Virus record (IMG/VR): IMGVR_UViG_3300045988_086557
DNA from: a virus
DNA: 64,000 nt
Direction: 5' to 3' (one strand)
Part shown: one piece after another, positions 60,634 through 64,000 of the stretch
Layout of the letters: each line of letters opens with the position of its first letter
Numbering within the stretch: the stretch's first letter is position 1
The notes under the pieces: model-generated
The model's database searches: none
Told to the model about the DNA's origin: nothing
What the model saw: the letters and a program-made list of their open reading frames with translations, nothing else
Position numbers and translations under genes: made by a program

Positions 60634-60897
60634 CTAGCCATATGTAGCAATTAAATCAGCTAGTAATTCTTCTTGTTCGATAGACAATTCTATTCCATAA
60701 CTAAACATTGCAGCGTGCGTTAACTCATGACATAAAACTTTTTTCATCATTAATGGAGATAATTCTCCATTAATATAAATACCTTTAGTTTCATTATCAC
60801 AAGCTCCTATCGTTAATTGTCCATCGCTTCTAATTAACATAGGATGAATTGGAGAAGTTAAAAATAATTTCCATCCTTCTCCATTAATATTAAACAT
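60634..60897 (-). CDS. small HExxH metallopeptidase-like protein
   Basis: HELTHAAM; ends in TAG (possibly extended 20 aa to TGA); start overlaps upstream TAA (ATGTTTAA). Confidence 0.35.
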   Translation of the reverse strand: MFNINGEGWKLFLTSPIHPMLIRSDGQLTIGACDNETKGIYINGELSPLMMKKVLCHELTHAAMFSYGIELSIEQEELLADLIATYG

Positions 60898-61504
60898 GGT
60901 TTAAAGAAGATATTTTTGTAGCAAGAGCAGAAATTTTCTTTTCTAATAACTATCTTTCTTCTGGGCTTGCGTCATCAATCATTTCAACTAAATCTTCGCT
61001 TAATTCTTTCATGTATTTATCTAATTCTTTCATCTTTATTTCTTTATCTTTATGAAGCTCTTTTGATTCCATATACATCCGACGCATCATAGGACTACGA
61101 CCTTCGCGAGAATCTCTTAAATCCATTGGAAATTCTTTCTCATTATAATATATTGGTCTATCTCCATAGTTTCTGCGGCTATCCTGCATATCTCCTCTAT
61201 CTGATTCAGTATATCTCCCTTGAGAATCTCTTGAACGAGGATAGTACATTCTACCCCATTCATTTCTGTCCATATCTCTATCGGGTAAATAATATGGAGG
61301 AGTAATTGGAATGTAATACTTTCTATGTTCTTCATCTTTCTCTTCCATTGCTTTTACAATAGAACAGTAGTACATTGCCTGCTCTAAATCTTTTATCATA
61401 TCAATAGCTTCGCCTAATTCATGAGTGTCTACATTATGAATATCACTTAGCTATGATTGAACACACCCAATAAGAGTTTCTTTCATATGTTTAAGTCTTT
61501 CCAT
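60890..61504 (-). CDS. Tyr/Arg/Asp-rich hypothetical protein; 2 in-frame TAG
   Basis: ATG at 61504 (2 nt after upstream TAA, RBS AAGGGTGG); ORF track shows only 60950..61399; read-through TAG 60950 ends at TAA overlapping next start. Confidence 0.4.
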
Positions 61505-61506
61505 AA

Positions 61507-61929
61507 TTAAGCCACCCTTTCAATAATTAAATTTGCATTTTGGACGTCAATAGTCTGAGTAGAAACATTTTTTACTGCAATTTCAAAGCAACATCCTCTT
61601 GGCACATCAATAAATATAGAACTTGCTACATTATTATAATCTCCTACCGCCGCCGGAGTAGAAATCATAGTAGTAGAAGCTACCCCTTCTCCATTGATAG
61701 CAATAGCTAAAGAAATTGGACCTGCTGTTCCACCTGCGGCGATTGCAATATTACCGCTAAAATGAGCTTTATATCTAGCTCTGCATTGAGTAGATGTATT
61801 ACCTTTTAGTGTTACTAGTCCACTTCCAACGCGATGTAGTAGGCTGTTGGAACAGCCTACTACCGCATCGGTAAAAAGGACATTTTGATTAGCTTGTACT
61901 GTTTGTACGGCATTCGCAATAATTTCCAT
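61507..61929 (-). CDS. hypothetical protein, Ala/Gly/Thr-rich possible beta-sandwich (jelly-roll) protein
   Basis: RBS AAAAGGAGAG; 140 aa; TAA stop. Confidence 0.5.
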   Translation of the reverse strand: MEIIANAVQTVQANQNVLFTDAVVGCSNSLLHRVGSGLVTLKGNTSTQCRARYKAHFSGNIAIAAGGTAGPISLAIAINGEGVASTTMISTPAAVGDYNNVASSIFIDVPRGCCFEIAVKNVSTQTIDVQNANLIIERVA

Positions 61930-61957
61930 TGAACCAAATCTCTCCTTTTAATTTAAA

Positions 61958-62863
61958 TTAACACCCGCAATTACTCATGCTATAGCAACAGTTGGGGTTT
62001 GGTACTACATAAGCGGGAATTGGATTATCACGTCCTAATCTACGAATAAGCTCCGCAGTTTGAGCTTCTTGGTTAGCTGTAATAAAGTTATTTTGAGCTT
62101 GTTGAGAAGCAGCGAGACGAAGGGCCTGATTCTCGTTTTGCAAATCAGAGATTTTCTCCTGGCAGAGATAATCAAGAATTGCACGAGTTCCAGCATTTTG
62201 ACTGTCAATAATATCACGAGTATTATTGGCCATAGAAGTCTGTAGTGCATTAGTATTAGTCGCTAGATTGTAGTTGACGTCGGCAAAACCTCTCTCAATC
62301 TGACGACCAGTCTCGCAGCAACAATCTGCAATTTGACGAGAAATAGCATTTTGATTTGTGAGATTATCAAAACTTGCTTGCTGAATTGCAGATTTTGTAT
62401 CACAACAACAGTTAGAAAGCTGTGTAGCTAAAGCATTTTGACCCTGCATTAAAGCTACATTAGTGCTATTGAAACCTTGCTGTGTCTGATATCCAAGATT
62501 GCATACTGCGTTGTCTACTCCATGGAAACCATTTGTTAAAGCATTATTTAAAGCATATGTGCTATCACAGATTCCCTACTGGATAGAATTAATTCCAGAC
62601 TGTAGATTTTGGAAAGTAAAACCTTCATTAATGTCTGCGCGAGTTGCCCAACCTTGACCAGAAGGAGAACCCAGACCATTACTGTTGGCTCCATATCCAC
62701 CAAAACCGCCAAATCCATTTCCCCATCCAGAGAAGCAGAATAAGAATAGAATTATAATCCACCAAGCTCCTCCGTCGTTCCAAATTCCGCCATTGTTACG
62801 ATCATTGCCACCTGTAGCAGCAGCAATATCAGCTAAAGAGTATCCATTGTTAGAATTGAACAT
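61958..62863 (-). CDS. Gly-rich/TM/Cys-cluster repetitive protein; 1 in-frame TAG (62576)
   Basis: RBS AAAGGAGGAAC; ORF-track 62576..62863 and 61958..62449 same frame with 42 sense codons between; CCC motifs and Q/N-rich repeats; TAA stop. Confidence 0.5.
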
Positions 62864-62888
62864 TTAAGTTCCTCCTTTAAGAAAATTA

Positions 62889-63122
62889 TTAAAGGCCGAG
62901 CATTTTCTTAAAGTCAGCAAACTCCTTGTCATAATTTAATCCTCTTTGGGATAAAAGATTTCTAGCTATTTGTTCAATCTCTTCGGTTTTATTCTATTTG
63001 GCAAGATCTAACAAATTAGCTCCAAACGGATTATTCCCCATCTAACTTTCTAATATATTTAGAGTTAGCTATTGAGGATTCTATCCATTCCTAATCATTT
63101 GAATTAACTACATTGGATTCAT
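62889..63122 (-). CDS. hidden small protein (77 aa) with 6 in-frame TAG
   Basis: RBS AAGGAGCC; MNPM[TAG]LIQMIRNG[TAG]NPQ[TAG]LTLNILES[TAG]MGNNPF...; ends TAA TAA; not in ORF track. Confidence 0.4.
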
Positions 63123-63134
63123 TTTATCGGCTCC

Positions 63135-63560
63135 TTAAAAATCTAATTTTGGCTTTGATTCCTGCTATTGCGCTGTAGGCTATTTATTTGCCTATGGCGC
63201 AATTTTTTCTTTTAATTGAGCAAGTACGGTTTCAAATTCTTCTCTAGTAACAAACTAAGAAGGATTGACAACTGTTTCAATCGGAATATTTTTTAATTCA
63301 TAAACATTAAGTGTTGAAGTTCCATCTAAATTTATCTATTTTGTATATATTTTTTTATTAGCTAAATCAGGAAAGAAAAATACAGAACCATCAAAGTCAA
63401 TGCTAGTTGCCTTTACTTCTTCTATTGAAGAAACTGGGCGACCTTTAATTCCAATCTAGGGCTATTCCACATAGGGCATTCTTTGTTGCGGAGCATAAGG
63501 GATTGCCGCATACTAAGGTTGCTATTGTTGTGGTATATAGTATGGATAATTAACTGCCAT
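63135..63560 (-). CDS. hidden Gln/Pro-rich protein (141 aa) with 9 in-frame TAG
   Basis: RBS AAGGAGGT 6 nt before ATG 63560; MAVNYPYYIPQQ[TAG]QP[TAG]YAAIPYAPQQ...; ORF-track 63422..63619 is the wrong frame. Confidence 0.45.
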
Positions 63561-63659
63561 AGTTTTACCTCCTTTAAAATATTCCCTTGGCCTTTCATTA
63601 TTATATAAAATTTTGGCAAAGATAATTTTACTATTTTGCCAAAATTTTTGCCAATTTTA

Positions 63660-63693
63660 GTATAAAAATATAATGGGGCATAGTAACCCCATT
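63660..63693 (-). terminator. rho-independent terminator for - strand gene
   Basis: AATGGGG CATAGTAA CCCCATT then A/T run on - strand. Confidence 0.6.
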
Positions 63694-63696
63694 ATA

Positions 63697-64000
63697 TCAT
63701 GATGCTCTATTTTCATTAACCGCGGCTTCAATGAGATTAGTTAGGTAAGTATTTAAGTCGCCAGTTGTCTCAATAATATATTGTTTTGCATCAGATGATA
63801 AGATCTCTAATACAGATTCCATAGTCTTATCAAATGCAATTTTTTGAGCCTCAGCATCAAAAGCACCTTGTTCTTTTAAGCTATTAACATAAGTCTGATT
63901 TGTAGCTATTACACATTTAGTAATAGTATCAAATATCATAGTGGTGTATTTCTAAGCTGTTTCATTCTCTGTCTTAGAATTTAACTCATCTCGTTTAGCA
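63697..64000 (-). CDS. hypothetical protein, 5'-partial (continues beyond window) with in-frame TAG at 63952
   Basis: frame open upstream of ATG 63939 through TAG to window edge; TGA stop 63697-63699. Confidence 0.4.

Follow-up and report, generated by a model that had tools for sequence, protein, structure and literature searches.

A TAG-recoded gene cassette encoding a C1q/TNF-type jelly-roll protein and a predicted helical membrane protein in phages of gut and rumen Firmicutes

The viral DNA stretch IMGVR_UViG_3300045988_086557 of IMG/VR (64,000 nucleotides, analysed here as a whole and called the window) carries close to one end, on the minus strand, a compact set of six genes, gB to gG. 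Among their products are a standalone jelly-roll protein (gE), a protein with a long predicted helix (gD) and a minimal peptidase-like protein (gG). Each of the genes gB to gF is preceded by an AGGAGG-like ribosome-binding site (RBS), and the start of gG overlaps the stop of gF by 8 nucleotides. Upstream lies gA, of which the C-terminal part falls within the window. The set gB-gG, termed here the cassette, belongs to a phage in which TAG is read as glutamine, and standard-code annotation damages five of its six genes, overlooking gB and gC altogether, breaking up gD and gF, and cutting gG short. The coordinates of these genes and of the other features discussed are collected in Table 1.

In a standard-code scan of open reading frames (ORFs; code 11, both strands, minimum 30 amino acids), positions 62868-63421 contain no ORF of 30 amino acids or more on either strand, and the sole ORF lying over gB is an off-frame one of 65 amino acids with a TTG start (63422-63619). 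Once TAG is taken as sense, ORF coverage of the window rises from 71% to 88%, and a total of 110 in-frame TAGs is found across 79 predicted genes, 18 of them in cassette genes. A suppressor transfer RNA (tRNA) with the anticodon CTA is encoded by the same DNA. The proposed frames were compared with those of L008 and L009, the closest relatives found, both contigs of public metagenome-assembled genomes (MAGs). The ratio of nonsynonymous to synonymous substitution rates (dN/dS) was 0.05-0.17 for all six genes, and 24 of the 27 alignment columns in which a TAG stands opposite a different codon were swaps between TAG and CAA or CAG, in both directions. Among 38 loci, Gln is by far the commonest residue aligned to the TAGs of the window (42%). 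The cassette's one apparent TAG stop, codon 88 of gG, is judged from homologs to be read through; both L008 and L009 have CAA there, and the length of homologs is about 107 amino acids.

Table 1. Features of the cassette locus, followed by other features of the window (aa, amino acids; AF2, AlphaFold2; TM, transmembrane; arrows give the direction of reading).
Feature	Position	Strand	Description	Evidence
gB	63135-63560	-	141 aa, 9 TAG	phrog_21718, homologs, dN/dS
gC	62889-63122	-	77 aa, 5 TAG	homologs, dN/dS
gD	61958-62863	-	301 aa, 1 TAG	phrog_16490, AF2 model, alignment
gE	61507-61929	-	140 aa, 0 TAG; standalone C1q/TNF-type jelly-roll	
gF	60890-61504	-	204 aa, 2 TAG	homologs, dN/dS
gG	60571-60897	-	108 aa, 1 TAG; minimal HExxH peptidase	Pfam, homologs
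gA	63697-64000, off window edge	-	holin-like, C-terminal ~100 codons, 1 TAG	PHROG match, open frame
Intrinsic terminator after gA	63667-63698	-	read 63698->63667	13-bp stem then T-run
Promoter-like site and putative operator	63607-63654	-	sigma-70-like site at 63654->63625; perfect inverted repeat 63607-63620 / 63635-63648	TTGGCA-18-TAAAAT, 14-nt inverted repeat, TTTTGGCAAA repeats
TATAAT-(A)ATG-AAAGG element	63581-63605	-	between promoter-like site and gB RBS	
GC-rich hairpin	60562-60587		between convergent blocks, overlaps gG stop	T8 follows on minus strand
Gene converging on the cassette	60125-60556	+	143 aa, N-terminal membrane helix, 4 TAG	phrog_4105/4257
RuvC-like resolvase	59573-60052	+	9 TAG	
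RecJ-like exonuclease	46317-48068	+	13 TAG	
GIY-YIG homing endonuclease	38336-39247	+	8 TAG; N-terminal hydrophobic segment	
Endolysin	29692-31101	+	469 aa, 9 TAG	phrog_20388/15001
Suppressor tRNA	6072-6147	+	anticodon CTA	ARAGORN
tRNA cluster	5331-7209	+	Ser-TGA, suppressor CTA, Leu-CAA, Cys-GCA; few long ORFs in the stretch	
Overlapping long ORFs with TAG as sense	16106-17944		minus strand 562 aa (7 TAG), plus strand 423 aa (2 TAG)	GC skew favours plus-strand ORF

The six genes gB to gG are genuine protein-coding genes of a TAG-to-Gln recoded phage of about 150 kb that is assigned to Firmicutes, and they are under strong purifying selection. The original prediction had proposed hidden minus-strand genes with TAG as sense, a wrong frame in the ORF track at 63422-63619 and two genes invisible to standard ORF calling. 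The dN/dS values, the TAG/Gln codon swaps and the suppressor tRNA uphold the hidden genes, the frame of gB is the conserved one, and the two invisible genes are gB and gC. Coordinates and lengths were right for the 141-residue gB and the 301-residue gD, as was the TAG count of gB. The 77-residue gC was correctly placed and contains five TAGs where six had been counted. A small HExxH protein does come last, although its proposed end at 60634, giving 87 amino acids, was too early; with TAG88 read through, the gene ends at 60571, which is thus where the cassette feature begins. An artefact, in which the TAG-bearing frames would be chance ORFs or decayed pseudogenes and 63422-63619 the real gene, could point to that ORF as the only one called over gB under code 11. 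The low dN/dS in the proposed frames, the codon swaps, the homologs in dozens of loci and in thousands of database clusters and the presence of the suppressor tRNA leave this account with a probability close to nil, and the conservation of the gB frame refutes the off-frame ORF as a gene.

The reading of TAG as Gln (code 15) by means of a suppressor tRNA is established in large gut phages (Borges et al., 10.1101/2021.08.26.457843; Peters et al., 2022, PMC9523058; Babkin et al., 2023, on phAss-1, PMC10607447), and the present recoding is a new example of this known phenomenon. As in those phages, in-frame TAGs occur in conserved genes, a tRNA-CUA is encoded by the phage, TAG stands opposite Gln in relatives, recoding is patchy, and the virus is a large gut phage assigned to Firmicutes. 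In contrast to the described code-15 phages, it has no near match among GenBank phages (megablast with 20 kb of the window), and its genes for RecJ, RuvC and a homing endonuclease are TAG-rich too. These three are among the most TAG-rich genes of the window, and the endolysin gene (9 TAG) and fibre-like genes are TAG-rich as well, so that recoding here is not limited to late lytic, structural or lysis genes. TAG density was tried as a marker of late expression and discarded, since RecJ, RuvC and the homing endonuclease are TAG-rich too. No genes of the window are denser in TAG than gB and gC (about 6.5 per 100 codons), and these two are thus not translatable without the suppressor tRNA.

The original prediction had described a single operon starting at 63939 with a partial gene followed by a terminator. 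The terminator was found, with a 13-bp stem and a T-run, and so was the tight gB-gG set with strong RBSs. The first gene is indeed partial, although it does not start at 63939, its frame being open to the window edge through one TAG. It does not belong to the operon either: because the terminator and the promoter-like site TTGGCA-18-TAAAAT intervene, the operon proper consists of gB-gG, and gA is separate. The inverted repeat of the putative operator overlaps the promoter-like site, and the exact operator motif has a single occurrence site within the window. The gA terminator is also kept in L008 and L009, and the whole intergenic stretch between gA and gB is almost invariant among the window and these two relatives, the synonymous divergence (dS) of adjacent genes being 0.4-1.4. 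A hairpin with a T-run, read by eye, stands directly upstream of the cassette in most of the other loci, in both of its variants. At the distal end, the GC-rich hairpin that overlaps the gG stop probably terminates transcription from both directions. The predicted signals thus describe gB-gG as a transcription unit of its own, bounded by terminators and provided with its own conserved promoter and operator.

Further observations concern the two flanks of the cassette. Variants of the TATAAT-(A)ATG-AAAGG element precede many type-1 cassettes in loci that have otherwise diverged (L005-L037); the element might serve as a second promoter, as a leader or at the RNA level. The gene that converges on the cassette from the plus strand shares the terminator hairpin with it, and the C-terminal 'LGGNG' region of its product resembles, by eye, the product of a small gene immediately preceding the endolysin gene of L033.

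The neighbouring gA falls in phrog_13712, labelled 'holin' (E=1.7e-28), and its full-length homologs have 134-143 amino acids and one N-terminal TM helix. Pfam gave no holin match for the query, which was the C-terminal part, the N-terminus lying beyond the window. By its family match gA is a predicted holin-like gene, separate from the transcription unit of the cassette. The endolysin gene is located about 30 kb away on the other strand, and the lysis genes are accordingly dispersed in this genome.

A scan of one genome per species yielded 38 loci, all of them on MAG contigs, mostly binned as Clostridia or Bacilli and originating from human, ruminant and rabbit guts. The cassette core with a peptidase-like gene recurs in about 40 loci that were fetched from gut and rumen Firmicute phages, and gD adjoins gE in 36 of the 38 genome loci. 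Two variants were distinguished by jackhmmer searches: the order gB-gC-gD-gE-gF-gG, as in the window, and the order gX-gB-(gC')-gD-gE, sometimes followed by a gF-like gene, in which gX is unrelated to gG. The gX variant is found on temperate, siphovirus-sized contigs, between holin or endolysin genes and integrase or repressor genes. In L026, L033, L034, L039 and L045 the cassette follows a holin or endolysin gene and precedes both integrase and repressor. The lysis genes always precede it, and in temperate phages the integrase gene follows immediately. Relatives of about 150 kb show the order tail-fibre genes, gA and gB-gG, then convergent genes for RuvC, dUTPase, NrdG, NrdD, guanylate kinase and Pol III alpha; in one of them a CHAP/CW_7 endolysin gene lies beside gA. 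The plus-strand end of the window matches this layout, its RuvC-like gene being preceded by ORFs of similar size.

Two cultured phages are among the carriers. Butyrivibrio virus Ceridwen, which infects Butyrivibrio fibrisolvens, has gX, gB, gC-like, gD, gE and gF-like genes, and Bacteroides phage C3_41T2LP has a relative of gD. The Ceridwen genes are QHJ73765-QHJ73772, and the C3_41T2LP locus comprises WLZ21182 and the genes downstream of it. Two viruses assigned to Methanomassiliicoccales and many crAss-like phages likewise encode such relatives; in the latter they bear the labels 'spike protein/glycoprotein' or 'outer capsid protein/viral fiber'. Outside the Firmicutes phages, gD has neighbours that are like those of the cassette in size and composition, namely a small beta-rich Cys protein, a short protein rich in Arg, Asp and Tyr, and an HExxH peptidase. 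Gut and rumen viruses thus share, by horizontal transfer, an accessory cassette made up of the gB-gC-gD-gE core, with or without gF, and of one peptidase-like gene. Phage morons are recognised by a promoter and a terminator of their own and by insertion between conserved modules, and at the level of sequence prediction the cassette has all of these.

Some individual loci deserve mention. Endonuclease-type genes lie inside or beside the cassette in three unrelated phages: L001 (6157-6951, an endonuclease by eye only), L002 (4021-4641, annotated as I-HmuI-type) and L003 (8944-9684, similar to the L002 gene). They may help the horizontal spread of the cassette. In L046 (Caudoviricetes sp. vir215, assigned to Methanomassiliicoccales), a gD-like gene in the region 3152-5759, annotated as phrog_16490, is found just downstream of genes for a tail protein and a reverse transcriptase and upstream of an integrase gene; the reverse transcriptase is probably part of a diversity-generating retroelement. 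L042, a MAG contig binned as Absconditabacterales, carries a copy of the cassette in which TAG-sense gene calls fuse gE with gF. Absconditabacterales use a different genetic code, and the fusion is probably artificial, caused by the code that was assumed or by wrong binning.

The gE protein has the fold of a compact 10-strand jelly-roll of the C1q/TNF type, as in the C-terminal domain (CTD) of BclA. The closest folds are those of BclA, F-BclA and ExsFA, with an identity to BclA-type domains of only 16-18%, and the fold also matches cyanophage tail-fibre tips, P5 of PRD1 and the Sf6 knob. The protein falls in PHROG family 20016, which has no assigned function, and gave no match to curated families in Pfam (E<=1) or NCBIfam (E<=0.1). 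Its family is large: at 90% identity it comprises at least about 8,000 sequence clusters, and at 50% identity 885. Among the top 150 representatives gE always stands alone, without a collagen-like stalk in the same polypeptide and without fusion to any stalk or to gD, all of them having the size of a single domain (83-196 amino acids). Identity across the 38 genome loci is 51-94%, an unusual degree of conservation that reads as that of a protein with a conserved partner, and not with a fast-evolving host receptor. His32, Cys49, Cys113 and Cys114 are invariant across the aligned family, where they possibly form a metal site or a disulfide knot.

The original prediction had likened the Tyr-rich, Cys-cluster and Gly-rich compositions to those of spore-coat/exosporium or virion decoration proteins. 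The nearest folds of gE, together with Tyr-, Cys-, Gln- and Gly-rich compositions that recall cross-linked coat proteins, would suit mimics that are deposited on host spores. Carriers of the same cassette or of gD include, however, phages of Butyrivibrio and of Bacteroides, crAss-like phages and viruses of methanogens (assigned to Methanomassiliicoccales), and spore formation is not known in Butyrivibrio fibrisolvens or in the hosts of the other viruses. Searches of Pfam and NCBIfam gave no match to coat or exosporium families at the sequence level, and the identity of gE to BclA-type domains is as low as stated above. The spore-coat reading was therefore rejected on host range, and we consider mimicry of this kind very improbable. 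The cassette differs from the exosporium and endospore appendage proteins of Bacillus (BclA and F-BclA CTD, ExsFA/BxpB) also in design, since gE has no collagen-like stalk and its neighbour gD is alpha-helical, not collagen.

The gD protein matches phrog_16490 (E=2e-67) and is likewise represented by at least about 8,000 database sequence clusters (90% identity). In the AF2 model, a disordered N-terminal tail is followed by a TM helix (residues 34-44), a Gly-rich linker and a single uninterrupted helix of about 190 residues (85-277). The family alignment contains a conserved N-terminal peptide, GYSLADIAAxTG, a hydrophobic core, WWIIILFLF, flanked by Gly and Trp, and a conserved C-terminal tail, 'PxPAYVVPNPNCC..CGC'. 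The mean Cys count is 14; one or two CCC motifs are present across the family (two in the window), and indels in the helical region alter both the length of the protein and the number of these motifs. Searches with the gD profile against PDB sequences gave no match. Among the cassette proteins gD alone has a hydrophobic helix, and no signal peptide or lipobox was seen when the sequences of all cassette proteins, Bacteroidota versions included, were inspected. The N-terminal tail is acidic (net charge about -2) and the C-terminal flank roughly neutral, which weakly favours an N-out/C-in topology.

The architecture of gD, with an N-terminal anchor followed by a long Cys-bearing helix, resembles that of i-spanins (Rz), and the cassette directly follows holin or endolysin genes in the window, in L004, in the temperate loci, in Ceridwen and in cr116_1. 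It could on these grounds be a lysis accessory, with gD acting beside the holin in an i-spanin-like or antiholin-like manner and the other proteins tuning or completing lysis. As a spanin, gD was rejected for want of a lipoprotein partner: inspection of the variants found neither an o-spanin nor a signal peptide in any of them. Compared with i-spanins, gD is roughly double in length, bears CCC motifs and flanks rich in Gly and Trp, and occurs in viruses whose hosts are mostly monoderm Firmicutes and in part archaeal. Moreover, a terminator separates the cassette from the lysis genes, the endolysin of this phage is encoded 30 kb away, and no known set of lysis accessories is as large as these five to six genes, which include those for a jelly-roll and for low-complexity proteins. 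A role of this kind is accordingly regarded as improbable.

The remaining proteins of the cassette are likewise conserved. The gB protein (phrog_21718; dN/dS 0.11-0.17), found in 38 loci, has an N-terminus rich in Pro, Gln and Tyr, a core of the form 'GRPV..EE..A..DFDG..FPD...IYTK..DGT', a conserved and putatively helical 'VTREEF' segment, and a C-terminal 'KPxLxF'. With homologs in 26 loci and a dN/dS of 0.08-0.09, gC encodes a small conserved protein that is probably helical; divergent versions fall in PHROG 22984. Homologs of gF (29 loci; dN/dS 0.08-0.10; divergent versions in phrog_28802) have conserved, putatively helical ends around a low-complexity centre rich in Tyr, Arg, Asp and Gly. 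No match to PDB sequences was obtained for gB (single sequence and profile) or gF (profile), and gB to gF as a group gave no match in Pfam, NCBIfam or PADLOC and fall only in PHROG families without a function.

The last protein, gG, is the only one of the cassette with a match to curated families. It has the HExxH motif HELTH and scores above the thresholds of PF06114, the M78 or ImmA/IrrE peptidases (26.7 bits, cutoff 22), and of PF20573, DUF6782 (28.8 bits, cutoff 27). It differs from ImmA/IrrE in its minimal length of 108 amino acids, in lacking a recognised adjacent helix-turn-helix (HTH) repressor and in being replaced elsewhere by an unrelated Cys/His/Asp protein; no HTH (ImmR/XRE-type) repressor was found adjacent to gG, and gB to gF gave no HTH match. 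The replacing protein, gX, has about 120 amino acids with invariant Cys, His and Asp, and it gave no match in Pfam, nor its profile any among PDB sequences. As gG (25 loci) and gX (12 loci) never co-occur, the peptidase-like slot looks integral to the cassette yet replaceable. A leader-like N-terminus in gD and a C39-like spacing of Cys, His and Asp in gX had raised the idea of a double-glycine leader cleaved by a C39-like peptidase; it was rejected, the GG being GN, DN or GS in many homologs and gX having no match to the C39 family.

A model for the cassette can be proposed in which the single hydrophobic helix of gD would hold the protein in the cytoplasmic membrane, N-out/C-in. The helix of about 190 residues would form an oligomeric coiled-coil stalk of about 28 nm (190 x 0.15 nm), bearing the CCC motifs and the Cys/Pro tail. 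A C1q/TNF-type trimer of gE would associate with this stalk, giving a BclA-like stalk and knob split over two polypeptides. The proteins gB, gC and gF, two of them with low-complexity tails, may be assembly or linker partners, and the occupant of the peptidase slot (gG here, gX elsewhere) may mature one component. Such a complex might act at the membrane of the infected or lysogenic cell, in phage exclusion or defence or in the control of lysis, and not as a core part of the virion. This role is the weakest step of the model. A non-structural membrane module of the moron type is preferred because of the position after the lysis genes and before the integrase, the insulation by terminators and the conserved private operator, and the predicted membrane helix of gD also argues more for a non-structural accessory cassette. 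The whole package, that is an autonomous moron-like module making a membrane-anchored stalk-and-knob complex with a non-structural role, is held tentatively, with slightly less than even confidence.

Several points weigh against this model. The oligomeric state of gD is assumed, the confidence of its structural model is low (pLDDT, the predicted local distance difference test score, is 59), and the call of its topology is weak. The physical link between gD and gE is conjectural; the top 150 gE representatives include no gD-gE fusion, and C1q/TNF knobs are typical of phage fibre tips too. PADLOC detected no defence family in the cassette, returning only a chance-level match to the coiled coil of ZorA (E=0.009). 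The dependence of gB and gC on the suppressor tRNA suits a late lytic role no less well than one of the moron type. Finally, comparison by hhalign of the gE and gB profiles with the partner proteins of the Bacteroidota cassettes found no homology; the idea of whole-cassette conservation outside the Firmicutes-assigned phages was dropped after this comparison, and the full system is claimed only for the latter.

The same stalk and knob could also be placed on the virion, as a decoration or accessory fibre in which gD trimers would be attached to the capsid or neck through the N-terminal peptide, with gE as the distal knob, and would serve adhesion or persistence in the gut. Hoc and fibritin of T4 and the BclA nap are analogues of such structures. 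The likeness of gE to fibre-tip and knob domains (BclA, cyanophage tail-fibre tips, PRD1 P5 and the Sf6 knob) suits this proposal, as do the variable length of gD, with its helical indels and changing number of CCC motifs, the siting behind the tail-fibre genes, on the strand of the late genes, that is seen in the large phages, the high TAG density, and the restriction of the fetched loci to gut and rumen viruses across morphotypes and host domains. Structural genes, however, would not usually lie behind the lysis genes, beside the integrase of temperate phages and insulated by a terminator, and the strongly hydrophobic segment of gD speaks against decoration as well. Receptor-binding tips usually vary, whereas gE is highly conserved, and a generic attachment site would be required for transfer between virions that differ so much in type. 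We regard decoration of the particle as unlikely. A bolder form of the preferred membrane model would see in the cassette a new, self-contained device of several proteins that passes between gut viruses of Bacteria and those of Archaea, with a peptidase-matured gD stalk bearing the gE trimer, low-complexity partners and a role in inter-viral exclusion or defence or in lysis control. The device would act at the cytoplasmic membrane, the structure common to all these hosts. This is a possibility that we put forward with clear reserve, as rather unlikely in its full extent.

The cassette matches no described system in Pfam, NCBIfam, PADLOC or the literature searched, and it is classed here among phage accessory units, as one with a knob of the C1q type and a putative coiled-coil stalk. 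The members of the gD and gE clusters that were looked at are unnamed or carry the label 'hypothetical protein' or a generic one such as 'spike protein/glycoprotein'. The nearest comparison is offered by phage morons and the membrane proteins of superinfection exclusion, such as the morons of HK97 and lambda, Sie2009, Ltp and T4 Imm. Like these, the cassette is autonomous, with a predicted promoter and terminator of its own, lies between lysis genes and integrase and encodes a predicted membrane protein. It differs from them in having four to six co-conserved genes, where a typical moron has one, and in including a jelly-roll, low-complexity proteins and a peptidase.

Since standard-code annotation erases or truncates five of the six genes, catalogues of recoded phages will under-count the cassette. 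Being conserved, selected, mobile and provided with its own predicted regulation, and found in viruses of Firmicutes (gD also in those of Bacteroidota and of gut methanogens), it ranks among the more abundant unexplained modules of the gut virome. Hidden genes as such are routine for code-15 phages, but an abundant module that crosses lineages, with a confident fold and cultured carriers, is a worthwhile experimental target, and the cultured phages Ceridwen, with the cassette, and C3_41T2LP, with the gD core, make it tractable. Should the cassette serve as a decoration of the particle, it would be a gut-specific decoration common to several virus lineages. If the proposed role in exclusion, defence or lysis control is true, the cassette would represent a new kind of phage-phage or phage-host interaction.

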